DNA of 64,000 nt from Candidatus Evtepia faecavium. GTDB taxonomy: Bacteria > Bacillota > Clostridia > Oscillospirales > Oscillospiraceae. The notes below the pieces were generated by a model. It was not told where the DNA came from and did not search any database. It saw only the letters and a program-made list of their open reading frames with translations. A program made the translations under genes and the position numbers. The stretch spans positions 39,706 to 103,705 of the forward strand of contig DXDK01000046.1 of NCBI GenBank assembly GCA_019115545.1, in the 5' to 3' direction. Below, piece by piece: positions 31,610-52,629 of the stretch. The number at the start of each line of letters is the position of its first letter. Positions within the stretch are counted from its first letter, which is position 1.

Positions 31610-32509
31610 TCATTCCCCCTCCTGGGTGTTGTTCTGGGGGGTGGAGCGGCGGATGGAGAAGTCGAAGAACCGGTCCACGTTGGCCAGGGGATGGGGCGGC
31701 TTCCGGCGGACGATGTAGAAGTTGCTGGCCGAGACGGGGCTGGTGAGGGCCAGGCGCTTCACGTCCGGCCGGTGGACCGGCGGGGTGTCCAGCAAAACGG
31801 AGATGCCAAACCCCTGGGCCACCAGCTCCAGGATGAAGTCGGCGTCCTCCACCTGGTAGGCGATGTGCCACCGGTCCCGCACCGGGGCGAAGAGGCGGTC
31901 CACCGGGTCCCGCTGGCCGCTGAGCCAGGAGTAGGTCACATGGGGGTAGGGGAGGGTCTCCTCCAGGGTGACGGCCTCCTTTTCCGCCAGGGGATGGTCC
32001 AGGGGGACGGCCACCACCATGGACCGGCGCAGGACAGGGGCGTACTCCAGCTGGGGGTCGCTGAAGATCTTGGAGCAGAAGCCGATGTCCGCCTTTCCCT
32101 CGGTGACCGCCTGGCACACCTGGCTGGACATGCCGGTGGAGAACTCAAAGTCACAGCCGGGGTTGTCCTCCTTGAACTGCCGGCACAGCCGGGTCACCGT
32201 GGGGGCCACCAGGAGGGGGATGGTCTGCACCCGGATGGTGCCCACCCCCTCCTTCAGCATCTGGAAGTTGCGCAGGCAGCTGTCCGCCAGGGCGACGATC
32301 TGCCGGGCCTGGGGGAGCAGGGCCTTCCCGAACCGGCCCAGGGCGATGCCCCGGCCGCTCTTTTGAAAGAGGGTGACCCCCAGCTCCTTTTCCAGGGAGG
32401 CGATGGCGTGGCTCAGGCCGGACTGGGAGATGTTCAGCCGCTGGGCCGCCCGGCTGTAGTGCATCTCCTGGGAGAGGACCAGGAAGTAGCGCAGATGATC
32501 GATGTTCAA
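31610..32509 (-). CDS. LysR-family transcriptional regulator
   Basis: 299 aa: MNIDHLRYFLVLSQEMHYSRAAQRLNISQSGLSHAIASLEKELG (HTH) plus a substrate-binding domain. TTG start after GGGAGGTG. It is divergent from the aminotransferase gene. Confidence 0.92.
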   Translation of the reverse strand: MNIDHLRYFLVLSQEMHYSRAAQRLNISQSGLSHAIASLEKELGVTLFQKSGRGIALGRFGKALLPQARQIVALADSCLRNFQMLKEGVGTIRVQTIPLLVAPTVTRLCRQFKEDNPGCDFEFSTGMSSQVCQAVTEGKADIGFCSKIFSDPQLEYAPVLRRSMVVAVPLDHPLAEKEAVTLEETLPYPHVTYSWLSGQRDPVDRLFAPVRDRWHIAYQVEDADFILELVAQGFGISVLLDTPPVHRPDVKRLALTSPVSASNFYIVRRKPPHPLANVDRFFDFSIRRSTPQNNTQEGE

Positions 32510-32669: not shown

Positions 32670-33986
32670 GTGAAGCGATACGTCACGGAGAAATCCAAGG
32701 CGCTGTTCCAGCGCACCACCCCCTACCTGGTGGACGGGGTGGGCAGTTCCTTCCACCGCAGCCGGTACCGGGAATACCCCGTGGCCATGACCCACGGGAA
32801 GGGCTCCAAGCTGTATGACGTGGACGGCAACGAGTACATCGACTATGTCCTGGGCTTCGGCCCTATGATCTTGGGCTACTGCCCCCCGGCGGTGGACCGG
32901 GCGGTGGCGGAGCAGCTGCGGAAGGGCACCCACTTCTCCGCCCCCACCCAGGACCTCCAGCGGCTGGCCCAGCGGCTGACGGAGCTCATCCCCGCCGCGG
33001 AGCAGGTGATGTTCCAGAACTCCGGCACGGAGGTGGTGATGTGCGCCCTCCGCCTGGCCCGGGCCTACACGGGGAAATACAAGGTGGTGAAGTTCGAGGG
33101 CCAGTACCACGGCTGGTCCGACGAGGAGAAGGTGAGCATCGACGCTGCCTCTGTGGAGGAGCTGGGCCCCCGGGAGCGCCCCAACAAGATCCTCCACACC
33201 AAGGGCCAGCGGCTGTCCTCGGCGGACGACCTCATCGTCCTGCCCTGGAACGACCTGGAGGCCCTGGAGCGCACCCTCACAGAGCAGGAGGGGGAGATCG
33301 CCGCGGTGCTCATGGAGCCCTGCATGTGCGACTCCGGCCCCATCCTCCCCCTGCCGGGGTATCTGGAGGGGGTGCGGAAGAGCACCCGCCGCCACGGGGT
33401 GGTGCTGATCTTTGACGAGGTGATCACCGGCTTCCGCCTGTCCCTGGGGGGCGCCCAGGCTTATTACGGGGTGACCCCGGATCTGGCCACCTTTGCCAAG
33501 GCCATCGCCGGGGGGTATCCCTTCGGGGCCGTGGTGGGGAAGCGGGAGATTATGTCCTGCGGGGTCCCCGCCTCGGGGACCTTCAACGGCAACCCCGTGG
33601 GGGTGGCCGCCGCCCTGGCCACCCTGGAGGAGCTCTCCCAGCCCGGGGTGTACCAGCGCTTTGACCGCCTGGGCCAGCTGCTGGAGGAGGGCTTCCGGGC
33701 CCTGGGGGAGAAGTACCACCGCAAGCTCTACCTGCGCCACATGGGGAGCATCTTCGTGCTGTACTTCGGCTACACCGAGGACGTGGCGGACTTCCGGGAC
33801 TGGCTGGGCCACGCCGACGTGGCGGCCTACGAGCGCTTCGTCGCCGGGTGCGAGGACTACGGCGTCCGCTTCACCGACCTGCGGGGCCGGGAGTACCTCT
33901 CCACCGCCCACACCGAGGAGGACATCCGCCGCACCCTGGCGGTGGCCGACCAGGTCCTGGGGGAGATGGCGCAGGAGGGCGTGTGA
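32670..33986 (+). CDS. Class-III PLP aminotransferase (glutamate-1-semialdehyde aminomutase-like)
   Basis: 438 aa with a GTG start after AAGGAGGAG. It has ...FQNSGTEVVMCALRLARAYTGK...LIFDEVITGFRL...DLATFAKAIAGGYP, with the PLP lysine in its usual context. Confidence 0.88.
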   Translation: MKRYVTEKSKALFQRTTPYLVDGVGSSFHRSRYREYPVAMTHGKGSKLYDVDGNEYIDYVLGFGPMILGYCPPAVDRAVAEQLRKGTHFSAPTQDLQRLAQRLTELIPAAEQVMFQNSGTEVVMCALRLARAYTGKYKVVKFEGQYHGWSDEEKVSIDAASVEELGPRERPNKILHTKGQRLSSADDLIVLPWNDLEALERTLTEQEGEIAAVLMEPCMCDSGPILPLPGYLEGVRKSTRRHGVVLIFDEVITGFRLSLGGAQAYYGVTPDLATFAKAIAGGYPFGAVVGKREIMSCGVPASGTFNGNPVGVAAALATLEELSQPGVYQRFDRLGQLLEEGFRALGEKYHRKLYLRHMGSIFVLYFGYTEDVADFRDWLGHADVAAYERFVAGCEDYGVRFTDLRGREYLSTAHTEEDIRRTLAVADQVLGEMAQEGV

Positions 33987-34149: not shown

Positions 34150-34926
34150 ATGGGTATGAAGATACATGTGCTGTACCTGGGGAAGATGGAGTTTCCCCGT
34201 TTCCGGCTGGTGGAGTGCCAGAACGAGGAGACCATGGTGGTCTCCCCGGCGGTGGCCATCCTCATCCAGCACCCCACCTTGGGGAACATCCTCTATGACA
34301 CCGGCAACAGCGAGGACTTCCTCCAGGTCTACACCAAGGAGATGCTCCACGACTACCCCATCACGGAGAACATCACCATTGTGGAGGCCCTGGCCAAAGC
34401 GGGCCTCACCCCGGAGGACATCGACCAGATCATCCTCTCCCACCTCCACTTCGACCACGCCGGGGGCCTGAAGCACTTCGTGGGCACCAAGGCCATCCGG
34501 CACGTGCTGGTGTCCGAGGCCGACCTGAAGCAGGCCTGGTGGGCGGTCACCACCGGCAACGGCGGGGCTTACATCCGGGAGCTCTTCGACGTGGAGGGGA
34601 TCCAGTTTGACACCATCTCCGACACCACCTGGCTGGCGGAGGACCTGGGCCTCTTCATCCAGGCCTCCCACACCCCCGGGGTCATCGGGATGATTTTGAA
34701 GACCGAGCACAACGGAACCATTCTCACCACCAGCGACGCCATCTACACCGCCGACAGCTACGAGAAGGCCCTGCCCCCCGGCGGCACCATCAACAAGACC
34801 ACCGACGAGTTCTTCGACAACCTCAAGCGTATCCAGGCCATGCAGGAGGGCTATAACGCCACCCTCCTCTTCGGCCACGACATCGACCAGATCCTCTCCT
34901 GGGTGGACCGGGGGGCCATCGACTGA
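34150..34926 (+). CDS. Metallo-beta-lactamase fold hydrolase (AiiA-like lactonase family)
   Basis: 258 aa with the zinc motif SHLHFDHAGG, plus a downstream HTPG and a late H/D. SD GGAAGGAG lies 9 nt upstream. Confidence 0.82.
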   Translation: MGMKIHVLYLGKMEFPRFRLVECQNEETMVVSPAVAILIQHPTLGNILYDTGNSEDFLQVYTKEMLHDYPITENITIVEALAKAGLTPEDIDQIILSHLHFDHAGGLKHFVGTKAIRHVLVSEADLKQAWWAVTTGNGGAYIRELFDVEGIQFDTISDTTWLAEDLGLFIQASHTPGVIGMILKTEHNGTILTTSDAIYTADSYEKALPPGGTINKTTDEFFDNLKRIQAMQEGYNATLLFGHDIDQILSWVDRGAID

Positions 34927-35026: not shown

Positions 35027-35057
35027 GGAAGCAGTCCCAAAAGAAAGGAGCATCGCT

Positions 35058-37316
35058 ATGACCACACCCACCGCTGGCGCCGCGTTAGGCAACCAGCTCC
35101 GCGCGGGCACCGTTGCCAAGGTCGGCAGCACGAAACGCATCCAGGAGCTCAACGGAATGCTCCACTCCAACCGGCCCAACGTGGACATCACCCGGGCCCG
35201 GGCCTATACCAAGGTCTACAAGGCCACCGAGGGGATGCCCAGCCTCATGCGCCGGTACAAGGCCTCCGCCGAGGTCTACCGCACCCTCACCGACAACGTC
35301 TACGACTACGAACAGCTGGTGGGCTGGCCCACCAAGCGCATCCGGGGGGCCAACTTCGCCATCGAGCTCCACGCCCACTGGCTGGCCGAGGACCTGCCCA
35401 ACCTCCGGGACCGGACCTACGACCCCTTTGAGATCACCGATGAGGACTACAAGGAACTGGAGGAGGAACTGCTCCCCTACTGGAAGGACAAGACCATGGC
35501 CGTCCAGTGGGGCCACTACGTGAGCAAGGAGGAGTGGAACCGGGGGCAGTTCGGCGGCGTGTCCGACGTGTCCAACTACCTCTGCGCCAACGGCTCCCAC
35601 TTCATCCCCGCCTGGACCGACGTGATCCAGCACGGCTTTGTGAAGTACTATGAGAAGGCCAAGGCCCTCCTGGCCGCCCTGGACCCCAACGACCCGGAAT
35701 CCATCGACAAGCGCATCTTCTACAACGGCATTATCGAGGTGCTGGAGGCCATCCGGGACTGGGGGGAGCGCCTGTCCGCCGCCTGCGCCCGCAAGGCCCA
35801 GCAGGAGAAAGACCCCGTCCGGAAGAAAGAGCTGGAGGACATGGCCGCCATGATGCAGCGGGTGCCCTGGGGCCCCGCCACCTCCTTCCACGACGCCTGC
35901 GAGACCGCCTGGGCGGTGTGCTTCTTCCTCTTCGTGGAGGGGGCCGGGCCCTCCATCACCTGGGGGCGGTTTGACCAGTACATGTATCCCTACTATAAGG
36001 CCGACATCGAAAAGGGCATCCTCACCCCGGAAAAGGCCATGGAGCTCATCGAGGAGCTCTATGTCCGGGTGACCTCCAACGTGTGGTTCCAGTCCACCCA
36101 GATGGCCTACATCTTCGGCGGGTACTACCGCTACCCCCACCTGGACGTGGGCGGCCTGGACGAGAACGGCAAGGACGCCTCCAACGAGCTGTCCTACCTC
36201 TGCCTGCGGGCCATGCGGTACGCCAAGACCACCTCCCCGGCGGTGAGCCTGCTGCTCCATCAGAAGACGCCGGATTCCCTCCTATACGAGGCCTGCGAAC
36301 TGGCCGCCGAGGGCATGGGCCACCCTTCCTTTTTCAACTGCGAGGGGCTGTATTCCATGCTGGAGCACCGGGCCAGCGGGCCGGAGGCCTATTCCAACTA
36401 CACCCGGAAGGACATTCTGAAGTTCGGCTCCCCCATCGGCTGCGTGGAGCCCGGGGCGGAGGGGCTGCAGTACGGCCACACCGATTCCGGCATCATCAAC
36501 GTGGCCGGGGCCGCCCTCATGGCGGTGACCAACGGGGTCATGCCCAGGGAGTCGGACAATATGTTCGCCGGCAAGCTCCTCACCTTCGAGAGCGGCGACC
36601 CGGCCAGCTTTGCAACCTTTGACCAGTTCTACGCCGCGGTGAAGGCCCAGATCAAGTACGCCATCGAGGAGGCCCACGCCAACCTCCTGGTGTGCGAGAA
36701 GCTCCTGGCCGAGCAGTTCAACCTGCCCACCTTCACCGTCCTGCTGGAGGGCGCCCTGGAAAAGGCCAAGGACGCCACCGCCGGCGGGGCCAAGGTCAAC
36801 GTGGGCCCCACCATGAACATGTGCGGCTTTGGCACCATGGTGGACTCGGTGGCCGCCATCAAGAAGGTGGTCTACCAGGACCACGCCGCCACCCTGCCCC
36901 AGGTCCGGGACGCCTGCATGGAAAACTTCCGGGGATACGAGGACCTGCGGGTGAAGCTCCAGGCCGCCCCCAAGTACGGCAACGACGACGACTTCGCCGA
37001 CGATATTGCCGCCGACCTGTGGGAGTGGTTCGCCCAGTGCACCATGCGCCTGAAGATGTACCGGGGCCACTACTGCGACGCGGCGGTGCAGATGGTCCAG
37101 TCCAACGTGGGCTACGGCGCCATGACCGGGGCCACCCCCAACGGCCGCCTGGCGGGGATGCCCCTGTCGGACACCATGTCCGCCACCCAGCAGGCCGACA
37201 CCCACGGCCCCACCGCCGCCGCCCGGAGCTATGGCAAGCTGGACTTCCCGGTGTACACCAACGGCACCCTGCTGAATATGTGGATCAGCCAGTCGGAGCT
37301 CATGGAAAAGCAGTGA
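35058..37316 (+). CDS. Glycyl radical enzyme, catalytic body lacking the Gly-radical domain (PFL2/dehydratase-type)
   Basis: 752 aa from the ATG 8 nt after AAAGGAG. The N-terminus is GRE-like (ITRARAYTKVYKATEGMPSLMRRYKA). The Cys loop is SPIGCVEPG. It ends ...NGTLLNMWISQSELMEKQ-TGA, just before the point where homologs carry the radical domain. Confidence 0.85.
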   Translation: MTTPTAGAALGNQLRAGTVAKVGSTKRIQELNGMLHSNRPNVDITRARAYTKVYKATEGMPSLMRRYKASAEVYRTLTDNVYDYEQLVGWPTKRIRGANFAIELHAHWLAEDLPNLRDRTYDPFEITDEDYKELEEELLPYWKDKTMAVQWGHYVSKEEWNRGQFGGVSDVSNYLCANGSHFIPAWTDVIQHGFVKYYEKAKALLAALDPNDPESIDKRIFYNGIIEVLEAIRDWGERLSAACARKAQQEKDPVRKKELEDMAAMMQRVPWGPATSFHDACETAWAVCFFLFVEGAGPSITWGRFDQYMYPYYKADIEKGILTPEKAMELIEELYVRVTSNVWFQSTQMAYIFGGYYRYPHLDVGGLDENGKDASNELSYLCLRAMRYAKTTSPAVSLLLHQKTPDSLLYEACELAAEGMGHPSFFNCEGLYSMLEHRASGPEAYSNYTRKDILKFGSPIGCVEPGAEGLQYGHTDSGIINVAGAALMAVTNGVMPRESDNMFAGKLLTFESGDPASFATFDQFYAAVKAQIKYAIEEAHANLLVCEKLLAEQFNLPTFTVLLEGALEKAKDATAGGAKVNVGPTMNMCGFGTMVDSVAAIKKVVYQDHAATLPQVRDACMENFRGYEDLRVKLQAAPKYGNDDDFADDIAADLWEWFAQCTMRLKMYRGHYCDAAVQMVQSNVGYGAMTGATPNGRLAGMPLSDTMSATQQADTHGPTAAARSYGKLDFPVYTNGTLLNMWISQSELMEKQ

Positions 37317-37355
37317 GTTCCCCCTTGGGAAACCGAAACGGAAAGGAGAATCCCT

Positions 37356-37652
37356 ATGACCACCATCCGTGACGTGCCTCTGAACTGCCCCGAGGCCACC
37401 TATGTGGAGCCCGCCTACAAAGAGGCCGGCATGCGCAACTTCACCAACCTGGTGCGCACCATGCTCAATGACTACGGCGTGTACCACGTGCAGTTCAACA
37501 CCATCAACAAGGAGACCCTCATCGACGCCAAGGCCCACCCGGAGAACTACCCCACCCTGATGGTCCGGGTGGCCGGCTACAGCGTCTACTGGACGGACAT
37601 CGCCGAGCGGGTTCAGGACGACATCATCAGCCGGACGGAGCACACATTTTAA
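37356..37652 (+). CDS. Stand-alone glycyl radical domain protein (98 aa)
   Basis: ...YHVQFNTINKETLIDAKAHPENYPTLMVRVAGYSVYWTDIAERVQDDIISRTEHTF carries the RVAGYS fingerprint. Its own SD AAAGGAG sits 7 nt before the ATG. It is in the same frame as the preceding ORF (39-nt gap). Confidence 0.85.
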   Translation: MTTIRDVPLNCPEATYVEPAYKEAGMRNFTNLVRTMLNDYGVYHVQFNTINKETLIDAKAHPENYPTLMVRVAGYSVYWTDIAERVQDDIISRTEHTF

Positions 37653-37821
37653 TCCCCATGGGGACCCACTGCGCTGGGCTCCCCATGGGAAGGGGAAGCA
37701 GCCCGACCCGCGCCTGGCGGGGCCAGGCACTCTCGGGCTGAGAAGTGTTTTTTCCGGGGCGCATGTCCCCGGAAAAAACGGATTGCATTTGGATTCCGCC
37801 GGCTGCGGCCGGCGGAATTCC
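37653..37821 (+). other. Hairpin-rich intercistronic spacer between the radical-domain gene and the activase
   Basis: Four stems: 37653-37690 (TCCCCATGGGGA...TCCCCATGGGA), 37712-37727, 37746-37780 (12-bp TTTTTTCCGGGG/CCCCGGAAAAAA) and 37791-37821 (TTCCGCCGGC/GCCGGCGGAA). Confidence 0.6.
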
Positions 37822-37855
37822 AGCATCCGGCGATGGAAGAAGGGAGACGAGGTCC

Positions 37856-38812
37856 GTGGAGGAAAAAACAGCCATCATTTTTGACATTGGGCGGTTCCGG
37901 AACACCGACGGGCCGGGGATCCGGACCATCATCTTCTTCAAGGGCTGCCCCCTGCGCTGCCGGTGGTGCAGCAACCCCTTCGGGCTGGAGCTCCACCCCC
38001 AGCTGGCGGTGAACCCCGCCAAGTGCACCGGCTGCGGCAAGTGCGTGGAGGTCTGTCCCCACGGGGTGAACGCCATCACCCCCGGGGAAAAGGTCCGGGT
38101 GGACTTCGCCGCCTGCCAGACCTGCGGCACCTGCACGGCGGCCTGTCCCGGCGGGGCCCGGGCCATCTCCGGCCGGGCCTACACCGCCCGGCAGCTCTAC
38201 CAGGAGGCGGCCAAGGACGCCGCCTTCTACCGCAAGGGCGGAGGTGGGGTCACCCTCTCTGGGGGGGAGGTCCTCCTCCAATACGAGGTGGCGGCGGAGA
38301 CCCTCCGGCTGTGCCGGACCAACTACCTCAACACCTGCATCGAGACCTCCGCCTACGCCCCCTGGGACCACCTCTGGCAGGTGGCCCAGTACTGCCACAC
38401 GGTGTTTGTGGACCTGAAGCACATGGACAACACCCAGCACCAGGCCATGACCGGGGTGGGCAATGGGGTCATCCTGGACAACATCAGCCGCCTCTGCCGG
38501 GAGCTCCCTCGCCGGGGGGGCAAGGTAATCGTCCGGATGCCCCTCATCCCCGGGTACAACGACGACGACGAGGCGGTGGCCGCCGGGGCCCGCTTCGTGG
38601 CGGAGCTGGACGGGGCGCCGGAGCTCAACCTTCTGCCCTACCACAACCTGGGGGAGAGCAAGTACGAGATGATCGGGGCGGCATACACCCTCCCCGGCCT
38701 GGAGAGCCGGAAGCGGCGGGACCCCCGCCTGCTGGCCATCCAGGCCCTCTGCCAGCAGCTGGCCCCCCGCAATCGGGTGAGCCTGGGGGGCGACGCCATT
38801 GATCTGGGGTGA
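37856..38812 (+). CDS. Glycyl-radical enzyme activating protein (radical SAM)
   Basis: VEEKTAIIFDIGRFRNTDGPGIRTIIFFKGCPLRCRWCSNP carries the CxxxCxxC motif. Two ferredoxin-like Cys clusters follow (CTGCGKCVEVCP, CQTCGTCTAACP). The GTG start at 37856 after AGGGAG is inferred. The track start at 37745 lies inside a hairpin. Confidence 0.85.
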   Translation: MEEKTAIIFDIGRFRNTDGPGIRTIIFFKGCPLRCRWCSNPFGLELHPQLAVNPAKCTGCGKCVEVCPHGVNAITPGEKVRVDFAACQTCGTCTAACPGGARAISGRAYTARQLYQEAAKDAAFYRKGGGGVTLSGGEVLLQYEVAAETLRLCRTNYLNTCIETSAYAPWDHLWQVAQYCHTVFVDLKHMDNTQHQAMTGVGNGVILDNISRLCRELPRRGGKVIVRMPLIPGYNDDDEAVAAGARFVAELDGAPELNLLPYHNLGESKYEMIGAAYTLPGLESRKRRDPRLLAIQALCQQLAPRNRVSLGGDAIDLG

Positions 38813-38956: not shown

Positions 38957-39337
38957 GTGGAGATCATCATCAGCAGCAACACCAGCAAACCCATCTATGA
39001 GCAGATCACCTCCCAGATCAAGGGGATGATCATGAGCGGGGAACTGCGAACGGGGGATCCCATTCCCTCCATGCGGGCCCTGGCCAAGTCCATCCACGTC
39101 AGCGTCATCACCGTGCAGAAGGCTTACGAGGACCTGCAGCGGGATGGATTCATCGAGACCACGGTGGGGCGGGGAAGTTTCGTCTCCGCCCGAAACAAGG
39201 ATTTCTATCAGGAAGAGCGGCAGCGGCAGGCGGAGGAACATCTCCAGCAGGCCGCCGACATCGGCCGGACCAGCGGCATCCCGGTGGAGAAGCTGGTGGA
39301 GCTGCTGCGTATGTTTTATGAGGAGGGAGATCTATGA
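38957..39337 (+). CDS. GntR-family regulator, YtrA subfamily
   Basis: 126 aa with a GTG start after AAAGGAGG. It has KPIYEQITSQIKGMIMSGELRTGDPIPSMRALAKSIHVSVITVQKAYEDLQRDGFI and a short C-terminal helical tail. Confidence 0.9.
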   Translation: MEIIISSNTSKPIYEQITSQIKGMIMSGELRTGDPIPSMRALAKSIHVSVITVQKAYEDLQRDGFIETTVGRGSFVSARNKDFYQEERQRQAEEHLQQAADIGRTSGIPVEKLVELLRMFYEEGDL

Positions 39338-40197
39338 GCGGCAATGCTCTGGCAGTCCAAGGCCTGACCAAACGATACAAGGACTTTGTCCTGGACAACG
39401 TCTCCTTTGTCGTACCCCGGGGAGCTATCGTGGGCCTGGTGGGAGAGAACGGCGCGGGGAAGAGCACCACCCTCCACGCCATCCTGGGGCTGATCCACCG
39501 GGACGGCGGTTCTGTGGAGCTGCTGGGCCGGGAGGACACGGCGGTAGACGAGGCCTTCCGGAACCAGATTGGGGTGGTTTTTGACGGCAGCAGCTACCCG
39601 GAGACCCTTACCCCCCGAAAGCTGAACCGGGTGTTCCAGTCTCTGTACCAGGGGTGGGACGAGGCCGGCTACTTTGCCCTGCTGGAGCAGCTGTCCCTGC
39701 CGGCGGACAAGAAGATCAAGGCCTTTTCCAAGGGGATGAAGATGAAGCTCTCCCTGGCGGTGGCCTTCTCCCACGGGGCCAAGCTGCTGGTGCTGGACGA
39801 GGCCACCAGTGGCCTGGATCCGGTGGTCCGGGACGATATCCTGGACCTCTGCCTGGGCTTTGTCCAGGAGGAGGACCGGGCCATCCTGGTCTCCTCCCAC
39901 ATCACCAGCGACCTGGAAAAGGTGGCCGACTACATCGTCTTCCTCCACAAGGGACGGGTGGTGTTCTGCAAGCCCAAGGATGAGCTGCGCTATCACTACG
40001 GCATTCTCCGGTGCGGGGCAGCTCAGTTTGAGGCCATTGACAAAGGAGAGGTTTTGGCCTGGCGCCGGCAGGACTACCAGTGGGAGGTCCTGGTGGCCGA
40101 CCGGGCCGCGGCCCAGCGGAAGTATCCCAAGGCGGTGGTGGACCCGGCCACCATTGACGAGATCATGCTGCTCTATGTAAAGGGGGAGAGACCATGA
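39334..40197 (+). CDS. ABC transporter ATP-binding protein
   Basis: Walker A GENGAGKST, signature FSKGMKMK, Walker B LLVLDEATSGLD. It has an ATGA overlap with the GntR gene. Confidence 0.92.
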   Translation: MSGNALAVQGLTKRYKDFVLDNVSFVVPRGAIVGLVGENGAGKSTTLHAILGLIHRDGGSVELLGREDTAVDEAFRNQIGVVFDGSSYPETLTPRKLNRVFQSLYQGWDEAGYFALLEQLSLPADKKIKAFSKGMKMKLSLAVAFSHGAKLLVLDEATSGLDPVVRDDILDLCLGFVQEEDRAILVSSHITSDLEKVADYIVFLHKGRVVFCKPKDELRYHYGILRCGAAQFEAIDKGEVLAWRRQDYQWEVLVADRAAAQRKYPKAVVDPATIDEIMLLYVKGERP

Positions 40198-40805
40198 AAG
40201 GCTTGCTTTTGAAAGACTTCTACCTGTGCTGTTCGGTGCTGTACCTGATGGTGCCGGTGGTGGCCATCCTGGGGGTTGCCCTGTCCCTGCTGGTCTCCAC
40301 CTGGGTGCTGGTGGTGCTGTCTACGGTGATGTTTGGGATGATCGCCGTATCCACCATCAACATGGACAGGGTTTCCGGCTGGCAAAAGGTGTCTGCCGTG
40401 CTGCCCCTGTCCCGGGCCCGGGTGGTGGACAGCAAGTATACCCTCTACCTCCTCCTCAGCGGGGCGGGGTTCCTGCTGGGCTTGGTGGTGGGCGGCGCGG
40501 TCTCCGGCATCCAGGGCGCCTTCGACTGGGCCACCATGGGGATCTACCTCGCCATCGGCGTGGACATGGCCCTTATGGCGGGGAGCTTCACCATCCCCCT
40601 CAGCTTCCTGCTGGGGGAGGAGAAGAATGTGCTGGCGGTGATCCTGGCTTATCCCATTGCGGCGGCGGCCTTCGTGGGGATCGTAGTGCCCCTGGGCGGG
40701 ACTGCCCTGGCCTGTGCCCTGGCGGCGGCGGTGGGGGCGGTGTGTTACCTCCTCTCCTGGATGCTGGCCCGGAAGGGCCTTGCCGCCCGAGAAGTAACCG
40801 GTTGA
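40194..40805 (+). CDS. ABC-2 type membrane protein
   Basis: 203-aa polytopic protein MKGLLLKDFYLCCSVLYLMV..., overlapping the ATPase gene by 4 nt. Confidence 0.75.
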   Translation: MKGLLLKDFYLCCSVLYLMVPVVAILGVALSLLVSTWVLVVLSTVMFGMIAVSTINMDRVSGWQKVSAVLPLSRARVVDSKYTLYLLLSGAGFLLGLVVGGAVSGIQGAFDWATMGIYLAIGVDMALMAGSFTIPLSFLLGEEKNVLAVILAYPIAAAAFVGIVVPLGGTALACALAAAVGAVCYLLSWMLARKGLAAREVTG

Positions 40806-40839: not shown

Positions 40840-40910
40840 TACCCAACCCATTCCTGTGCCGCCGGCGGGTTCGGTCCGCCGGCGGCCCTTTGCTGTCAGG
40901 AGGCCCCGCT

Positions 40911-41513
40911 ATGACAGAACGGACCAAACCCGAGGACCTGCGGGTCCAGCGCTCCCGGGCGCTGCTGCTCCAGGCCCTCGTCTCCCTGCTCAACGAGAAA
41001 CCCTTTGACGAGATCCGGGTGACGGATCTCTGCGCCCGGGCGGGGGTCCATCGCTCCACCTTTTACGCCCACTTTACGGACAAGCTCCACCTGCTCACCT
41101 ACGGCATCCGGGAGCTGATGGACATCCTCATCGAGGCGCCCTCCCAGGAGCCGGGGCATTTCCAGCACGCAATGTACCGGGTGTTCAAGTACTTCAAGCT
41201 CCACCAGCAGGAGTACACCCTCCTTTTCCTCAACCCCCAGAACGCCGCGGCCAAGGACCTCTTCCTGAAGGAGTTCAGCCGCTGCCTGGAGCAGACCCTC
41301 CGGCAGCACCACCCCCAAGGAGGCGGGGAGGACCTCCGGGCCCGGAGCCTGTTCTTTACCGGGGGGCTGTTCATGGTGATGGCCTGGTGGCTGGAGCACG
41401 GCGCCCAGCCCGCCCCCCGGGAGATGGCCCGGCGGTTTGCCGGGATGGTCTCCCCGGGGTTCACCCTGCTGCCCCGGTCTTTGCCGGACGCCTGGGGCGG
41501 CTCGGCCGGGTGA
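40911..41513 (+). CDS. TetR/AcrR-family transcriptional regulator
   Basis: MTERTKPEDLRVQRSRALLLQALVSLLNEKPFDEIRVTDLCARAGVHRSTFYAHF. The ATG sits 7 nt after GGAGG. The track start at 40890 is an extension. Confidence 0.9.
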   Translation: MTERTKPEDLRVQRSRALLLQALVSLLNEKPFDEIRVTDLCARAGVHRSTFYAHFTDKLHLLTYGIRELMDILIEAPSQEPGHFQHAMYRVFKYFKLHQQEYTLLFLNPQNAAAKDLFLKEFSRCLEQTLRQHHPQGGGEDLRARSLFFTGGLFMVMAWWLEHGAQPAPREMARRFAGMVSPGFTLLPRSLPDAWGGSAG

Positions 41514-41548
41514 GGGGACAACCTGCGAGAGAAACGGAGGCACAAAAG

Positions 41549-42502
41549 ATGAAAACGATTTCCTGCGTACTGGGCCCGCTGCCGGTGGACCGGATGGGCA
41601 CCACCCTGGCCCATGAGCACATCTGCTGCGGGGACTGGTCCATGCGGGCCAACTTCGGCCCCCGGTTCTGCCCCGAGGAGAACCTGCTGGCCCGGGCGGT
41701 GGAACAGGTGAACCGGGCCAAGGCCGCCGGGGTGGCCACCATCGTGGACGGCACCGCCATCAACCTGGGGCGGGACATCCACCTGCTCCGCCAGGTCTCC
41801 CGGCTCACCGGGGTGAACCTGGTGGCCTCCAGCGGGTTTTACGACCAGGACGAGCCCTGGCTGGCGGGGCAGGTGGAGGGCTTCCTCTTCGACCTGCTGG
41901 ACCACGAGTGCAAGCACGGCATCGCCGGCACCGACTCCCGCCCGGGGCTCATGAAGTGCGCCGTGGGGACCCACGGCCTCACCCCCACCCGGGAGAAGAT
42001 CCTGCGCCTCACCGCACGGGTGGCGGTGGAGAACGACCTGCCCGTCTTCTGCCACCACGAGGTGAGCACCCGCTTAGGGCCCCAGATCCTGGACCTGCTC
42101 TGCGGGGAGGGGCTGGCCCCCCAGCGGATCATCCTGGGCCACGCCGGGGACAGTGAGGATTTGGATTACATCCTCTCCCTCCTGGACCGGGGCTGCTGGA
42201 TCGGCCAGGACCGCTGGCCCTACGACGGCCGGTTCAACACCGTGGCCAGCCGGGTGGAGACCATGGTCCAGCTGCGGCAACGGGGCCTGCTGGACCGGGT
42301 GCTCCTCTCCCACGACCTGTGCGTCTATCTGGGGTTCTGGGAGTCCATGGAGGCCTCCTTCGCCCGGGAGACCTTGTACGAGGGGGCCGACTTCACCTAC
42401 CTCTTCCGGACGGTCTTCCCCAAACTCCAGGCGGCCGGCTTCCCCCAGGAGGAGCTGGACCGGCTGATGACGGAGAACCCCCGGAACTTTTTTGCCGGGT
42501 AA
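41549..42502 (+). CDS. Phosphotriesterase-family (PTE/PHP, amidohydrolase superfamily) protein
   Basis: 317 aa from the ATG after ACGGAGG. MKTISCVLGPLPVDRMGTTLAHEHICC carries the HxH metal motif, with later ...VFCHH... and ...LLSHDL... The track ORF start at 41387 is an extension. Confidence 0.85.
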   Translation: MKTISCVLGPLPVDRMGTTLAHEHICCGDWSMRANFGPRFCPEENLLARAVEQVNRAKAAGVATIVDGTAINLGRDIHLLRQVSRLTGVNLVASSGFYDQDEPWLAGQVEGFLFDLLDHECKHGIAGTDSRPGLMKCAVGTHGLTPTREKILRLTARVAVENDLPVFCHHEVSTRLGPQILDLLCGEGLAPQRIILGHAGDSEDLDYILSLLDRGCWIGQDRWPYDGRFNTVASRVETMVQLRQRGLLDRVLLSHDLCVYLGFWESMEASFARETLYEGADFTYLFRTVFPKLQAAGFPQEELDRLMTENPRNFFAG

Positions 42503-43960: not shown

Positions 43961-44230
43961 GCGCCTGAATGGGCGCAGTCTGCGATGAGGCGGGAGATTG
44001 CGGTGCAAACCGGTAACTTCCGCGGAGTATGTCCGTGAATCGGGCGGCTGGAGAATCTGCTGCATGGCGTATATCGCCGTGACAGGAGGGGCGAAGCCGG
44101 CGAAGTATGCCGGTTTTCTTCATGCTCAAGGAGTGATACGCACGGTTAAGTGTATCGGATTCTCCACCGTACGAAGCGTGGCAGAGACACAATGACACTT
44201 CGTATGTTTTTTTAGGAGGAACACAGCAAC
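43961..44230 (+). promoter_or_regulatory. Long structured leader of the S10 operon with attenuator-like hairpin
   Basis: The untranslated leader is about 270 nt. Hairpins lie at 43961-43976 and 44093-44120. ACGAAG...CTTCGT (44171-44203) is followed by T7 (44207-44213), just before the SD AGGAGG. Confidence 0.5.
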
Positions 44231-44542
44231 ATGGCACAGAACGAAATGATTCGGATCCGCCTGAAGGCCTATGACCATCAGCTGATCGACCAGAGCGCAG
44301 AGAAGATCGTGGAGACCGCCAAGAGAACCGGCGCCACCGTCTCCGGCCCCATCCCCCTGCCCACCAAGAAGGAGGTCGTCACCATCCTTCGCGCCGTCCA
44401 CAAGTACAAGGACAGCCGGGAGCAGTTCGAGCGCCGCACCCACAAGCGCCTGATCGACATCAACAACCCCAGCCCCAAGACCGTGGAGGCGCTGATGAGC
44501 CTGGATCTGCCCGCCGGTGTGGAGATCGAGATCAAGCTCTGA
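44231..44542 (+). CDS. rpsJ: 30S ribosomal protein S10
   Basis: [35 protein letters not shown]... is a conserved uS10. Confidence 0.98.
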
Positions 44543-44694
44543 TCCCCCCTTTTGGCATCCACCGGCACCTATTTAACTATGTGTACCCGCTGCCTGTCGC
44601 CCTATCGTGAGACAGGCGGGTCATGTTGACAAACCAATGACAGCCCAATGGTCACGTTTGCCAACCAATAACCTGAATAAGGAGGAAAACCAAT

Positions 44695-45420
44695 ATGGAA
44701 AAGGCCATCATCGGCAGAAAGATCGGCATGTCCCAGATCTTTGACGAAGCCGGTAAGGTCATCCCGGTCACTGTCATCGAGGCAGGCCCCTGCGTCGTGG
44801 TGCAGAAGAAGACCGAGGAGAAGGACGGCTACAACGCCGTGCAGCTGGGCTTCCAGGACGTTCCCGAACGGAAGCTCACCAAGCCCGAGCAGGGCCACCT
44901 GAAGAAAGCAGAAGTCCCCATGAAGAAGGTCCTCAAGGAGTTCAAGCTGGATAAGGCAGCTGAGATGAACGTGGGCGACGAGATCAAGGCCGACACCTTT
45001 GCCAAGGGCGATCACATCGACGTGACCGGCATCAGCAAGGGCAAGGGCTTCCAGGGCGTGGTCAAGCGTTGGAACGCTGGCCGTGGCCGGATGACCCACG
45101 GCGGCGGCCCCGTCCACCGTCATGCCGGTTCCATGGGCTCCGGTACCGATCCTTCCCGCATCTTCAAGGGCAAGATCGGCGCTGGCCACATGGGCGCTGA
45201 GCAGGTCACCGTCCAGAACCTGGACGTGGTGAGCGTAGACCCCGAGTTCAACCTCATCGCGGTCTGCGGCGCCGTGCCCGGCCCCAAGGGCGGCATCGTC
45301 TACCTGAAGTCCACCGTGAAGACCCTCCGGGAGAAGAAGGGCGAAGCCGGCACCAGCGTCAACCCGCAGAAGGCCTCTGCCCGCGCCAACCCCCAGAAGG
45401 CGTCCGCCAGAAACCGGTAA
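44695..45420 (+). CDS. rplC: 50S ribosomal protein L3
   Basis: [33 protein letters not shown]... is uL3. It is 241 aa with a C-terminal extension of about 30 aa containing a tandem NPQKASAR. Confidence 0.97.
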
Positions 45421-45439
45421 GGAAAGGAGAGTTTGAGAA

Positions 45440-46060
45440 ATGCCTAAAGCTACTGTTTATAACATGGCCGGCCAGCAGGTCGGCGAGGTGGAACTCTCCG
45501 AGGGCGTGTTCGGCGTAGAGCCCAACGAGCCCGCCGTCCATGCCGTCGTGGTGAACCACCTGGCAAACTGCCGCCAGGGCACCCAGAGCGCCCTGACCCG
45601 CGCCGAGGTTTCCGGCGGCGGCAAGAAGCCCTGGAGACAGAAAGGTACCGGCCACGCCCGTCAGGGCAGCACCCGTGCGCCCCAGTGGACCCACGGCGGT
45701 ATCGTCTTCGCCCCCAAGCCCAGAGACTACAGCTACCGCGTCAACCGCAAGCTGAAGCGGCTGGCCCTGAAGTCCGCCCTGTCCGCCAAGGCTGCCAGCG
45801 GCGACCTGCTGGTGGTCGACAACCTGGCTCTGGACGAGATCAAGACCAAGAGCATCCAGGCCTTCCTGGATGCCGTGAGCGCCGGCAAGACCATCTTTGT
45901 CACCCCCGAGGTCAACGAGAACGTGTACAAGTCCGCACGGAACATCCCCGGTGTCTCCACCACCACCGCCAAGATCCTCAGCGTCTACGACATCGTCAAC
46001 GCCGAGAAGCTGGTCGTTGACCAGAAGGCGCTGGCCATCATCGAGGAGGTGTTCGCATGA
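45440..46060 (+). CDS. rplD: 50S ribosomal protein L4
   Basis: ...[25 protein letters not shown]... is uL4. Confidence 0.97.
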
Positions 46061-46353
46061 AGACAGCATACGACATCATCAGACGCCCTGTGATCACCGA
46101 ACAGTCCATGGCGGATACCGAGAACAAGAAGTATGTCTTCGAGGTGGCCAAGGACGCCACCAAGATTGAGATCGCCAAGGCCGTGGAAGAGGTCTTCGGC
46201 GTAAAGGTCATCAAGGTCAACACCCTGCGGGTGACCGGCAAGCTCAAGCGCACCGGCCGTTATCCCGCCGGCCGCCGGCCCAGCTGGAAGAAGGCTGTGG
46301 TCACCCTGTCCGACGATTCCAAGTCCATCGAGTTCTTCGAAGGAATGGCATAA
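46057..46353 (+). CDS. rplW: 50S ribosomal protein L23
   Basis: [18 protein letters not shown]...KYVFEV is uL23, with an ATGA overlap to rplD. Confidence 0.96.
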
Positions 46354-46368
46354 GGAGGTTAATGCACT

Positions 46369-47205
46369 ATGGCTATTAAGAGCTACAAGCCCACAACGCC
46401 TTCCCGCCGCAACATGACGGTCTCCGCGTTTGAGGGCATCGATAAGAAGGCCAAGCCGGAGCGTAGCCTGACTGAAACTCTGAAGAAGAACGCAGGACGC
46501 AACAGCTACGGCCGCATCACCGTCCGCCACCGCGGCGGCGGCAACAAGCGCAAGTACCGCATCATCGACTTCAAGCGGGACAAGATGGATATGCCTGCCA
46601 CCGTCCTCCGCCTGGAGTACGACCCCAACCGCAGCGCCAACATCGCCCTGGTCCAGTACGAGGACGGCGAGAAGCGCTACATCCTGGCCCCCGTTGGCCT
46701 GAAGGCCGGCGACCAGGTCATCTCCTCCGCCCAGGCCGACATCAAGCCCGGCAACTGCCTGCCCCTGGCAAACATCCCCACCGGCACCGTCATCCACAAC
46801 ATCGAGCTCTATCCCGGCAAGGGGGCCCAGCTGGTCCGCTCCGCCGGCACCTCCGCCCAGCTGATGGCCAAGGAAGGTGACCAGGCTCAGATCCGGATGC
46901 CCTCCGGTGAGGTGCGCATCGTCCGCCTCAACTGCAAGGCCTCCATCGGCCAGGTGGGCAACATCGACCATGAGAACATTTCCATCGGCAAGGCCGGTCG
47001 GAAGCGTCACATGGGCTGGAGACCCACCGTCCGCGGCTCCGTCATGAACCCCAATGACCACCCCCACGGCGGCGGCGAGGGCAAGTCCCCCGTGGGCCGT
47101 CCCGGGCCTGTTACCCCCTGGGGCAAGCCGGCCATGGGCTACAAGACGCGCAAGAAGAACCACCGCACTGACAAGTTCATTGTCAAGCGCCGCAACGCGA
47201 AGTAA
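46369..47205 (+). CDS. rplB: 50S ribosomal protein L2
   Basis: [14 protein letters not shown]...[18 protein letters not shown]...HPHGGGEGK is uL2. Confidence 0.98.
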
Positions 47206-47219
47206 GGAGGAGGCAGACT

Positions 47220-47492
47220 ATGAGCAGAAGCATCAAGAAAGGCCCGTTTTGCGCTCCCGAGCTTCTCAAGCGGGTTAAGGAAATGAACGAGTCCGGCGAC
47301 AAGAAGGTGCTCAAGACCTGGAGCAGAGCCTCCACCATCTTCCCCGCCTTCGTCGGCCACACCATCGCCGTCCACGATGGCCGCAAGCACGTGCCCGTCT
47401 ATATCACCGAGGATATGGTGGGCCACAAGCTGGGTGAGTTTGCCCCCACCCGCACCTTCCGCGGCCACGCCGGCAGCAAGACTGGTAAGTAA
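47220..47492 (+). CDS. rpsS: 30S ribosomal protein S19
   Basis: [19 protein letters not shown]...[23 protein letters not shown] is uS19. Confidence 0.98.
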
Positions 47493-47507
47493 GGAGGAGA
47501 GACAACG

Positions 47508-47843
47508 ATGGTAGCAAAAGCGCATGCAAGATATCTGCGGATCTCTCCCCGCAAGGTGAAGATCGTCGCGGACCTGATCCGCGGGAAGAGCCTGACCCAG
47601 GCCACCGGCATCCTGCTGACCACCCCCAAGGCAGCTTCCGAGCCCCTTCTGAAGCTGCTCAACAGCGCGGCGGCCAACGCAGAGAACAACCACAAGATGG
47701 ACCCCGAGAAGCTCTATGTCTCCGAGGTCTTTGCGACCCCCGGCCCCATCATCAAGCGCATCATGCCCCGCGCCCAGGGCCGTGCCTATCGCATCAATAA
47801 GAGAACCTCTCACGTCACCATCGCCGTGGCGGAGAAGGAATAA
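47508..47843 (+). CDS. rplV: 50S ribosomal protein L22
   Basis: AHARYLRISPRKVKIVADLIRGK...RAQGRAYRINKRTSHVTI is uL22. Confidence 0.97.
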   Translation: MVAKAHARYLRISPRKVKIVADLIRGKSLTQATGILLTTPKAASEPLLKLLNSAAANAENNHKMDPEKLYVSEVFATPGPIIKRIMPRAQGRAYRINKRTSHVTIAVAEKE

Positions 47844-47858
47844 GGGAGGAGGCAGATT

Positions 47859-48692
47859 ATGGGACAGAAAGTAAATCCCCACGGCCTGCGCGTGGGCGTC
47901 ATTAAGGACTGGGATTCCCGCTGGTATGCCCGCAACGAAAAAGTGGGCGATCTGGTCGTTGAAGACTACAACCTGCGGAAGTATCTGAAGAAGACCCTGT
48001 ACTCCGCCGGCATCCCCAAGATCGAGATCGAGCGTGACAACGCCAAGATCAAGATCTATCTCCACTGCGCCCGCCCCGGCGTGGTCATCGGCAAGGGCGG
48101 CACCGAGATCGAGCGGCTGCGCCTGGAGCTGGAGAAGAAGCTGGGCAAGCCCGTTGCCCTGAACATCGTGGAGGTCAAGACCCCCGACACCGACGCCCAG
48201 CTGGTGGCCGAGAACATCGCCCAGCAGCTGGAGAAGCGGATCTCCTTCCGCCGGGCCATGAAGAACAGCATGGGCCGCGCCATGCGGATGGGCGCCCGCG
48301 GCATCAAGGTCATGTGCTCCGGCCGCCTGGGCGGGGCTGAGATCGCCCGCAGCGAGTGCTATCACGACGGCACCATCCCCCTGCAGACCATCCGTGCCGA
48401 CATCGACTACGGCTTTGCTGAGGCTGCCACCACCTACGGCCGCATCGGCATCAAGGTTTGGATCTACAAGGGCGAGGTCCTCAGCCAGACCCTCCGCACC
48501 ACCCCCCGCACCCTGGACACCAAGAACTTCAAGGAGCGCTCCGACCGTCCTCGCCGCCGCGACGGCAGAGGCGGCTACAACCGCGACCGCAAGCCCGGCT
48601 ATGGCAACCGTCCGCAGGGTGGTTACAACAACAACCGTGGTCCCCGGCCTGCTGCCGGCGGATCTGCTCCCAAGGAAGGAGGCAAAGCCTAA
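47859..48692 (+). CDS. rpsC: 30S ribosomal protein S3
   Basis: [24 protein letters not shown]... is uS3. It is 277 aa with a C-terminal tail of about 58 aa rich in Arg, Gly and Asn. Confidence 0.97.
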
Positions 48693-49135
48693 TGCTGCTG
48701 CCCAAGAGAGTCAAATACCGCCGCGTGCACCGTGGCCGCCTGAAGGGCAAGGCTACCCGCGGCAACACCGTGACTTACGGTGATTTCGGGCTTCAGGCCC
48801 TGGAGCCCGCCTGGATCACCAGCAACCAGATCGAGGCCGCCCGTGTGGCCATGACCCGTTACACCAAGCGTGGCGGTAAGGTCTGGATCAAGATTTTCCC
48901 CGACAAGCCCATCACCGAGAAGCCCGCCGAGACCCGCATGGGTTCCGGTAAGGGTTCCCCCGAGTACTGGGTGGCCGTGGTCAAGCCCGGCCGTGTGATG
49001 TTCGAGATCGCCGGCGTCTCCGAGGAGGTCGCCCGCGAGGCCCTGCGTCTGGCCAGCCACAAGCTGCCCATCAAGACGAAGATCGTGGCCAAGGAAGAAA
49101 CGGCCCCTGAGAGCGAGAATGGTGGTGAAGCATGA
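48692..49135 (+). CDS. rplP: 50S ribosomal protein L16
   Basis: [25 protein letters not shown]... is uL16. The ATG overlaps the rpsC stop (TAATG). The track ORF at 48458 is an upstream extension. Confidence 0.97.
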
Positions 49136-49332
49136 TGAAGGCAAACGAGGTACGCAAGCTGTCTTCCGCTGACCTGGAAAAGAAGCTGACCGAGCTGAAG
49201 AAGGACCTCTTCCAGCTCCGTCTCCAGCATGCCACCAATCAGCTGGAAAACCCTGTCCGCATCACCGAAGTGAAGCGCGACATTGCCAGAGTCAAGACCA
49301 TCATCCGTGAGCAGCAGCTCGCTGGCCAGTAA
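49132..49332 (+). CDS. rpmC: 50S ribosomal protein L29
   Basis: [32 protein letters not shown] is uL29, overlapping the rplP stop. Confidence 0.95.
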
Positions 49333-49346
49333 GGAGGAACGGAATC

Positions 49347-49610
49347 ATGCCTGAAAACAGAACTTCTTCCCGTAAGACCAGAGTCGGCCTGGTGGTTTCG
49401 GATAAGATGGACAAGACCGTGGTGGTGGCCATTGCCGACCGTGTGGCCCACCCCCTGTACAAGAAGATCGTCAAGCGGACTTACAAGCTGAAGGCCCATG
49501 ACGAGAACAACACCTGCGGCGTCGGGGACAGAGTGAAGGTCATGGAGACCCGCCCCCTGTCCAAGGATAAGAGATGGCGCGTGGTGGAGATCATCGAAAA
49601 GGCGAAGTAA
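49347..49610 (+). CDS. rpsQ: 30S ribosomal protein S17
   Basis: ...[21 protein letters not shown]...[19 protein letters not shown] is uS17. Confidence 0.97.
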
Positions 49611-49623
49611 GGAGGTGCCGTAA

Positions 49624-49992
49624 ATGATCCAGCAGGAAACCTATCTGAAGGTGGCGGACAATACCGGCGCCAAGGAAATCAAGACCATCCGCGTGCTGGG
49701 CGGCTCTTCCCGCAAGTACGCGAACATCGGCGACGTGGTGGTGGCTTCCGTGCGGAAGGCTGCCCCCGGCGGCACCGTGAAGAAGGGCGACGTCGTCCGC
49801 GCCGTGGTGGTTCGCTCCGCCAGAGGCGTGCGTCGGGCCGACGGCAGCTACGTCCGCTTCGACGAGAACGCGGCCGTTCTGATCAAGGACGACAAGAACC
49901 CCAGAGGCACCCGTATCTTTGGGCCCGTGGCCCGTGAGCTGCGCGACAAGGATTACATGAAGATCCTGTCCCTGGCTCCCGAAGTACTGTAA
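49624..49992 (+). CDS. rplN: 50S ribosomal protein L14
   Basis: [27 protein letters not shown]... is uL14. Confidence 0.98.
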
Positions 49993-50006
49993 GGGAGGGG
50001 ACTCAG

Positions 50007-50324: not shown

Positions 50325-50342
50325 GAGAGGAGGAGTTAAATC

Positions 50343-50891: not shown

Positions 50892-50909
50892 TTAGGAGGA
50901 GAACGAGCA

Positions 50910-51673: not shown

Positions 51674-51688
51674 GGAGGAGAGATAACT

Positions 51689-52234: not shown

Positions 52235-52251
52235 GAAAGAGGTGTGCCTAA

Positions 52252-52611: not shown

Positions 52612-52629
52612 AGGGAGGAGGAAACGAAA

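Follow-up and report, generated by a model that had tools for sequence, protein, structure and literature searches.

A stretch of 64,000 nucleotides of Candidatus Evtepia faecavium DNA (assembly GCA_019115545.1, contig DXDK01000046.1, positions 39,706 to 103,705 of the forward strand), in the following referred to as the window, very probably encodes an obligate two-subunit glycyl radical enzyme (GRE), in which the radical glycine is located on a separate beta subunit. The catalytic body of the enzyme, alpha, and the small open reading frame (ORF) for beta follow each other on the plus strand and precede the gene of a GRE-activating enzyme. Among the three explanations that the initial annotation of this locus had considered, namely a genuine two-subunit GRE, UGA readthrough, and a recent nonsense mutation or sequencing error, it is the first that is supported, by an old and conserved split that recurs in other lineages, by selection, by intact motifs, and by the cognate activase. 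The features that carry this assignment are the following.

35044..35050, plus strand: Shine-Dalgarno (SD) sequence AAAGGAG of the body gene, 7 nt from the ATG at 35058 (sequence)
35058..37316, plus strand: GRE catalytic body (alpha), 752 amino acids, with its TGA at 37314-37316 (PF02901, 2e-153; TIGR01774 positions 3-710 of 786)
36441..36449, plus strand: Cys loop GCVEP, codons for Cys462-Val-Glu464, with the thiyl-radical cysteine and the general-base glutamate known from GREs of the 1,2-eliminase type (C489 and E491 when aligned to CutC)
37317..37355, plus strand: intercistronic spacer, 39 nt, with the SD sequence AAAGGAG at 37342-37348, 7 nt from the ATG at 37356 (sequence)
37356..37652, plus strand: stand-alone glycyl radical subunit (beta), 98 amino acids (PF01228 positions 49-105, 1.7e-18; TIGR01774 positions 710-785)
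37356..37427, plus strand: N-terminal extension of beta (MTTIRDVPLNCPEATYVEPAYKEA), specific to the clade and without counterpart in fused GREs (alignments)
37566..37634, plus strand: glycyl radical fingerprint RVAGYSVYWTDIAERVQDDIISR, with the radical Gly74 at 37575-37577 (regular-expression scan)
37856..38812, plus strand: GRE-activating radical S-adenosylmethionine (SAM) enzyme, about 318 amino acids (TIGR02494, 1.2e-90, 303.7 bits against a cut-off of 174)

Two Complementary Pieces of One Enzyme

The two ORFs divide the domains of a single GRE between them. In the Pfam scan, the body matches, besides PF02901, the first half of PF01228 only (profile positions 2-46, below threshold), and the small ORF takes up the same profile at position 49. 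With the NCBIfam model TIGR01774, which describes the PFL2/glycerol dehydratase family, the two matches meet at position 710; it follows that the pieces abut and that nothing is missing. The catalytic Cys loop SPIGCVEPG is found on the body, with Cys462 and Glu464. Cys462 aligns with Cys489 of CutC and is invariant across 79 aligned sequences, and the motif GCVEP is invariant in all bodies of the split clade. The fingerprint on the small ORF is the sole match in the window to the glycyl radical fingerprint, which was defined as RVxG[FWY]x6-8[FL]x4Qx2[IV]x2R (PMC13450708). The radical glycine is thus encoded on a separate ORF, the body stops 52 residues before the glycine, and a single-chain GRE is not what is encoded here. 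The activase scores above its family cut-off and is present in all related loci.

The body ORF is open from 35025/35058 to 37316 and ends with ...YTNGTLLNMWISQSELMEKQ, followed by the TGA. Its start is most likely the ATG at 35058, because the arrangement of AAAGGAG, 7 nt, and ATG is the same as that of the small ORF and because homologues measure 752-755 amino acids. The activase ORF is open from 37745; the length of its homologues (318-323 amino acids), together with the sequence, makes the GTG at 37856, preceded by AAGGGAG, its likely start. The description given in the initial annotation, that is, a 752-amino acid body with the Cys loop ending at the TGA, a radical domain on a 98-amino acid ORF with its own AAAGGAG 7 nt before the ATG, and an in-frame distance of 13 codons between the two, was confirmed in coordinates and motifs.

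Conservation and Selection

Homologues of either piece are found in numbers far beyond chance. The search with the small ORF returned 353 free-standing homologues of about 91-103 amino acids; among the 120 of these that were listed, nearly all are 91-103 amino acids long, with identities down to about 66%. The best 120 of 3820 body homologues are all 752-755 amino acids long and contain PF02901 only, without a radical domain. A variant of the body from Evtepia gabavorous occurs on at least 1000 contigs, and the enzyme is common in human-gut metagenomes. The relatives in which the split is shared at body identities of 42-85% are designated clade A, which comprises two subclades, A1 and A2; all 13 distinct loci compared are split at the same residue. 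The clade was sampled from independent assemblies, isolates, and metagenomes and includes Evtepia-like gut bacteria. It contains the loci L001-L006 (54-55% body identity to the window), the GTDB species L007-L010 (85, 84, 61, and 53%, respectively, including the isolate Paradesulfitobacterium ferrireducens PLL0), and the metagenome loci L087-L106, represented by the reference protein P0243 (42%). The GTDB scan yielded at least four species of the split clade, with Evtepia gabavorous itself not among them, and this taxonomic count is a lower bound. In the divergent members of the clade, the gene order is body, small ORF, and activase throughout. Of the GTDB loci with identities no higher than 35%, the roughly 60 that were parsed are all ordinary fused GREs, and a search of 1.84 billion cluster representatives found no fused protein closer than 37% identity (P0245, 841 amino acids).

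A comparison of the window with L007 and L008 gave ratios of nonsynonymous to synonymous substitution rates (dN/dS) of 0.04-0.06 for the small ORF, at dS of 0.75-1.6, and of 0.05-0.08 for the first 24 codons, which make up the extension. These values indicate that the small ORF, including its extension, is translated and under strong purifying selection. On the body, about 180 positions are invariant across a range of 42-92% identity, with the catalytic Cys and Glu among the residues kept.

Position and Structure of the Junction

In alignments with fused relatives, the body ends 2-4 residues past the strand NGTLLNMWIS-, while the homologous part of the small ORF starts at ...YKEAGMRNFTNLVRT, the helix preceding HVQFN. 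Placed between the two is an insertion of 17-24 residues that is absent from every fused GRE aligned. The 24-residue N-terminal segment of the small ORF, for which the initial annotation saw no counterpart in canonical GREs, therefore holds up as a feature specific to the split clade. The extension differs between the subclades: its core in A1 is PE[AS]TYxEPxYKEAG, and that in A2, FDVKKVDIxxLFPDKxExxFKRQGI, is unlike it. In CutC numbering, the cut falls at residue 767-769, which is 52 residues before Gly821; the numbering was checked on a CutC of 846 amino acids, with Y208, D216, F395, C489, E491, T502, and G821 in register.

For the structural analysis, an artificial alpha-beta fusion was modelled with AlphaFold2 (AF2) from an alignment of 105 unpaired rows, which gave a predicted local distance difference test score (pLDDT) of 85; the single-sequence model of the same fusion, with a pLDDT of 38, was useless. 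The model is confident at residues 18-676 and 774-850. The homologous part of the small subunit is modelled as a helix, a short strand, a helix, a beta-hairpin with the glycine, and a further helix, so that, according to the prediction, it is the helix-hairpin-helix radical domain of the recent review (PMC13450708) together with the helix-strand unit preceding it. The stretch between the two confident regions consists of the last ~75 residues of the body and the extension of the small subunit; its body part is well conserved across GREs.

Enzyme Class and Chemistry

Compared with CutC, propanediol dehydratase, and glycerol dehydratase (5fau, 5i2g, and 1r8w), the AF2 model reaches Foldseek template modelling scores of 0.82-0.88; by this comparison and by PF02901, the body has the ten-stranded alpha/beta barrel of the fold of pyruvate formate-lyase (PFL). 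The Cys loop GCxE of 1,2-eliminases is present as GCVEP, with Glu464 corresponding to CutC Glu491. Thr475, the equivalent of CutC T502, is retained in clade A, and the choline-binding Asp216 of CutC is replaced by His181 in all members of the clade. A His at this position resembles the situation in diol dehydratases. An identity with CutC, which gave the best hidden Markov model and PDB match, is ruled out by a score of 478.5 bits against a cut-off of 1050 for TIGR04394 and by the exchange of Asp216 for His; the scores for HpsG (427 against 1000 bits) and HypD (343 against 1100 bits) are below the equivalog cut-offs as well. The split enzyme is predicted to be a GRE of the 1,2-eliminase type that is not CutC.

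Gene neighbourhoods differ between the related loci. Pfam matches there include major facilitator superfamily transporters, IclR or sigma-54 regulators, a CoA-transferase, and an aldehyde:ferredoxin oxidoreductase, and L009 and L010 apparently contain an aldehyde dehydrogenase and enoyl-CoA hydratases, as far as can be told from ORF sizes and N-terminal sequences. Aldehyde-processing neighbours would fit an aldehyde as the product of the reaction, without naming the substrate.

Recurrence of the Split in Other GRE Lineages

Truncated bodies were also encountered at larger distance from the window. P0264, a protein of 723 amino acids with 33% identity to the window body, ends at the same strand as the clade-A bodies; it belongs to a family of three members (723-731 amino acids), the nearest relatives of which (47-48%) are fused proteins of 795-801 amino acids. 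A second truncated group consists of P0468, P0475, and P0487, with 723 amino acids. Loci with body and small ORF were recovered for two lineages other than clade A, B (L107 and L108) and C (L109), with bodies of 723-731 amino acids and the following gene orders.

L107:208-6750, lineage B: small ORF (87 amino acids), ATP-binding cassette (ABC) permease, ABC ATPase, body, activase
L109:5001-12037, lineage C: body, two permeases, binding protein, small ORF (94 amino acids), activase

The small ORFs of both lineages match the Gly_radical domain, and their bodies stop in the loop at which those of clade A are cut (CutC 767-769). In B and C, ABC-transporter genes stand between the genes of the two pieces, which are three genes and kilobases apart; the small gene of L107 is situated upstream of its body. 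The 58 bodies were compared by neighbour-joining over 711 columns (corrected identity distances, 100 bootstraps). A1 and A2 together, B, and C are each supported by 100; none of the 100 bootstraps groups any of A, B, and C with one another, and the fused enzymes among which B is nested are not those surrounding C. Most simply read, the tree means that GRE genes were split independently three times or more at a single structural site; the count rests on a distance tree and, hence, on a crude method, but the signal is strong.

P0247 (735 amino acids) was considered as a further split case; its C-terminal sequence is unrelated, it is probably a frameshift or a fragment, and it was not counted. 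Related to lineage B are six fused GREs of 930-970 amino acids (P0482, P0488, P0490, P0500, P0504, and P0505), for which the precomputed domain list places PF02036, an SCP2 sterol-binding domain, between PF02901 and PF01228. One of the six is from an Asgard (Promethearchaeota) metagenome-assembled genome.

Alternative Explanations

The strongest alternative, although an unlikely one, is that the small ORF encodes a spare part of the GrcA/YfiD type for a full-length GRE located elsewhere in the genome, the body being a non-catalytic or decaying relic. The small ORF indeed matches the models of GrcA3 (1.5e-20), GrcA2 (1.4e-17), and GrcA (2.1e-12), but the scores are well under the curated cut-offs (NF038360, 73 against 158; NF008341, 63.5 against 145; TIGR04365, 47.4 against 170), and the C-termini of PFL2-type enzymes are matched better than the GrcA models. 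A relic is made improbable by the retention of the catalytic Cys and Glu and of the invariant positions of the body, and a decaying one would not stay intact in several genera. Moreover, the body is always encoded alongside the small ORF and the activase, and body and small ORF rebuild exactly one TIGR01774 model.

Readthrough or recoding of the UGA would yield a fused chain of about 96 kDa spanning VPPWETETERRIP, and the separate ORF would be an annotation artefact. Within the window, this possibility is attractive, the ORFs being in frame, 13 sense codons apart, and separated by UGA, the leakiest stop codon. It loses nearly all of its probability when the relatives are considered. The stop codon at the 13 distinct junctions is TGA, TAA, or TAG. 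The spacers measure 9, 11, 12, 16, 23, 30, 31, 38, 39, 49, 53, and 76 nt and, in L087, where the script possibly called the start of the small ORF too early, at least 59 nt; nine of the 13 lie within 9-39 nt. The ORFs are in frame at only four of these junctions, each of the three relative frames is represented, and L007, with 85% identity, is at +1. From the stop codons and the mixed frames of the relatives, the in-frame relation in the window is concluded to be a coincidence. In every spacer checked (eight of eight), a GGAG-type SD sequence stands at a suitable distance from the ATG, and the spacer sequence is not conserved among relatives, whereas the ORFs are. Finally, the genes of lineages B and C are kilobases apart and not adjacent. 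The comparison of orthologous loci, which had been set beforehand as a test, upheld the stop, in all 13 junctions, and the SD sequence, in the eight spacers checked, while the 13-codon spacer turned out to be variable. As a family-wide mechanism, readthrough is already refuted by these sequences.

Of equally slight probability is a post-translational joining of the two chains by trans-splicing of the split-intein type or by a ligase. In its favour, split inteins are reported to reconnect the pieces of some other barrel enzymes that are encoded by split genes. The junction of the present enzyme holds at most ~28 extra residues in total, which is too short for intein halves. The Pfam scan produced no intein match, and the extension is wholly different among A1, A2, B, and C, unlike a conserved splicing module.

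The least probable explanation is that a normal single-chain GRE has been interrupted in this strain alone, by a nonsense mutation or by an error of sequencing, or has become a pseudogene. It can point to the single in-frame stop and nothing more, and is already refuted by the occurrence of the stop in all relatives, including those with a body identity of only 42%, and of stop, SD sequence, and extension in independent assemblies, isolates, and metagenomes, by the 17-24-residue insertion at the junction, by strong purifying selection (dN/dS 0.04-0.06), and by the distance to the nearest fused proteins, which are at most 37% identical.

Several points weigh against the assignment as a two-subunit enzyme. 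The scan for glycyl radical fingerprints covered the 64-kb window, and the small protein might also serve a full-length GRE elsewhere in the genome. The fingerprint in the window has an Ile at the Phe/Leu position of the motif, a conservative deviation with which it was still counted as a fingerprint; close relatives have Leu there, and L007 as well as lineages A2, B, and C match the motif strictly. In the AF2 model, residues 677-773 have a pLDDT below 50 (about 25), so that the packing of the chains at the junction is not readable; the low confidence could be an alignment artefact or could mark a segment that needs the context of its partner. The non-covalent assembly of the two chains is a prediction, and an economy of repair, or any other selective advantage of the split, is conjecture.

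Proposed Mechanism

In GREs, the radical glycine is buried about 20 Å deep, and exposure to oxygen breaks the polypeptide at this residue (PMC13450708). For activation, the radical domain must flip out to the activase and back, in a manner that is not understood (PMC13450708). YfiD/GrcA is activated alone by the PFL-activating enzyme and docks into damaged PFL, its disordered N-terminus promoting activation (PMC13450708). The docking of YfiD/GrcA in trans, together with the need for flipping out, provides a precedent for a docking of beta in trans.

In the two-subunit enzyme, alpha would be the barrel of ten strands, with Cys462 and Glu464 in its catalytic loop but without a radical glycine. 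Beta, translated from its own ribosome-binding site, would add the final helix-strand unit, along with the Gly74-bearing radical domain of the helix-hairpin-helix type. The radical SAM activase encoded next to it would take the hydrogen from Gly74, upon which beta would be seated in the alpha barrel with Gly74 facing Cys462. Catalysis would most likely proceed as in single-chain GREs of the 1,2-eliminase type, with the radical passing from Gly to Cys to the substrate and Glu464 acting as the base.

The loop at which the gene is cut, about 52 residues before the glycine, would form the base of that part which leaves the barrel for activation. Free or loosely tethered beta would be the substrate of the activase, could be radicalized without prying open the barrel, and would then dock beside Cys462. 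Beta damaged by oxygen could be replaced cheaply, since 98 rather than 850 residues would have to be remade and alpha would be spared; a GrcA-like function would thus be built in. Through its conserved extension, beta may be docked onto either alpha or the activase; the segment probably supplies binding energy lost with the covalent link or makes contact with the activase.

A more far-reaching proposal, for which the chances are judged to be somewhat less than even, is that the radical domain, a free subunit of 11 kDa, is a dissociable and exchangeable protein cofactor that would be radicalized off the enzyme, docked, and swapped after oxygen damage, and that the cut would have been selected at least three times in the same hinge loop. 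If true, the spare-part principle would extend beyond formate lyases, and a natural system would be available for isolating the long-postulated open, flipped-out state of GREs. A separate, selected gene for the radical domain makes the questions of flipping out and of spare parts directly testable. Beta alone would represent the "open" state and alpha alone the "empty" state, and exchange and repair of beta would be measurable. That three lineages are cut at one place indicates where the mechanical hinge lies and suggests a design rule, according to which GREs with the radical domain in trans might be engineered.

Gene Neighbourhood and RNA Structures

The cluster in the window is composed of a divergent LysR gene, a class-III aminotransferase, a hydrolase of the metallo-beta-lactamase (MBL) fold, alpha, beta, and the activase. 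The features that are not part of the enzyme are listed below.

31610..32509, minus strand: LysR-family regulator, divergent from the GRE cluster and its likely regulator (Pfam HTH_1 and LysR_substrate)
32670..33986, plus strand: class-III (pyridoxal phosphate) aminotransferase, heading the plus-strand cluster (PF00202, 4e-67)
34150..34926, plus strand: MBL-fold hydrolase, lactonase-like (PF00753, 3.5e-18; lactonase models below cut-off)
37653..37855, plus strand: structured gap of 203 nt between the small-subunit and activase genes (minimum free energy -119 kcal/mol, z = -5.4)

The best NCBIfam models for the aminotransferase are GntE and GSA-aminomutase-like, all below cut-off. In L007, a LysR gene, recognized by position and N-terminal sequence only, is found at the equivalent position, and a homologue of the MBL-fold hydrolase is located immediately 5' of the GRE there, too.

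The gap between the genes of the small subunit and the activase contains four strong hairpins, the z value having been obtained against shuffled sequences. Among the structures in the gap is a 14-bp U6-CCGGGG/CCCCGG-A6 stem at 37746-37780. A T-run/CCGGGG hairpin resembling it occurs in the equivalent gap of L007, and a hairpin like that of a terminator in the gap of L008; no Rfam family was matched within 31.5-39.5 kb of the window. The gap is probably an attenuator or an RNA-processing site that would keep the expression of the activase below that of the GRE subunits. A further, short hairpin, GUUCCC...GGGAAAC, was detected in the terminator scan on the opposite strand at 37317-37334, right after the TGA of the body gene and within the spacer. 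By sequence comparison only, the spacers of relatives share no obvious sequence with it.

On the 3' side of the GRE cluster, a TetR-family regulator and a phosphotriesterase-family gene are present at 40890-42502; ORFs of similar size occur at the corresponding position in L007 (L007:8616-10314; compared by sizes and N-termini only). A GntR/ABC pair at 38957-40805 is missing from the corresponding interval of L007. From 44200 to 60100 extends a long series of short, close-packed plus-strand ORFs that resembles a ribosomal-protein operon, which places the GRE cluster in a core chromosomal context with no obvious mobile element.

Comparison with Known Systems

According to a review of June 2026, all GREs keep the radical glycine and the catalytic cysteine within the catalytic subunit, and spare-part proteins are known only for formate lyases, their existence outside this group being unknown (PMC13450708). 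The initial annotation, which regarded free-standing radical domains as known solely in the role of spares for an intact PFL, agrees with this. Full-text literature searches, with subscription-only papers outside their reach, returned no description of a natively split GRE, and a prior mention is possible. The report of Ferlez et al. (2019), which was considered as a candidate for such a mention, concerns a non-functional N-terminal duplication in GRM2 CutC and not a split. In databases, the two proteins are entered under generic names, as "pyruvate formate lyase family protein" and as "hypothetical protein", so that family surveys with length filters would tend to lose them.

The closest analogues of the small ORF are GrcA/YfiD of E. 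coli and Y06I of phage T4, which likewise consist of a small free-standing radical domain behind a non-homologous N-terminal segment. GrcA inserts in trans into a GRE body to supply the radical glycine (PMC13450708), as is proposed for beta. However, GrcA backs up a full-length PFL after cleavage by oxygen, whereas the body described here has no radical domain and beta is the only source encoded alongside. By sequence, the small ORF belongs to the PFL2/dehydratase branch, unlike GrcA of the formate lyases, and it is operonic with body and activase. It fails the cut-offs of all three GrcA families, and its partner is a body of the dehydratase/lyase type and not a full-length PFL.

The single-chain GREs of TIGR01774, that is, CutC, glycerol and propanediol dehydratases, HypD, HpsG, and IslA, have the same fold, GCxE loop, and fingerprint as the split enzyme and the same type of activase with a ferredoxin-like insert. 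The split enzyme differs from them in its two polypeptides, in the 17-24-residue insertion at the junction, and in its equivalog scores below cut-off. A large catalytic subunit and one or more small subunits encoded nearby are also found in benzylsuccinate synthase (BSS; alpha-beta-gamma), 4-hydroxyphenylacetate decarboxylase (HPAD; alpha-gamma), and methylalkylsuccinate synthase (MASS), and some of these small subunits modulate the movement of the radical domain (PMC13450708). They are, however, Fe-S or metal proteins, and the glycine is on alpha, while beta of the split enzyme is the radical domain itself and is without a cluster-binding motif.

Two polypeptides also make up, by nature, a radical enzyme from the related superfamily of ten-stranded barrels, the class II ribonucleotide reductase of Pseudomonas aeruginosa with its parts NrdJa and NrdJb (PMC4520616). 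It uses adenosylcobalamin as the cofactor and, unlike the split GRE, has no glycyl radical. Summarizing, the fold and the chemistry of the split enzyme are those of known GREs; its two-piece quaternary design appears to be new, and it is recurrent.

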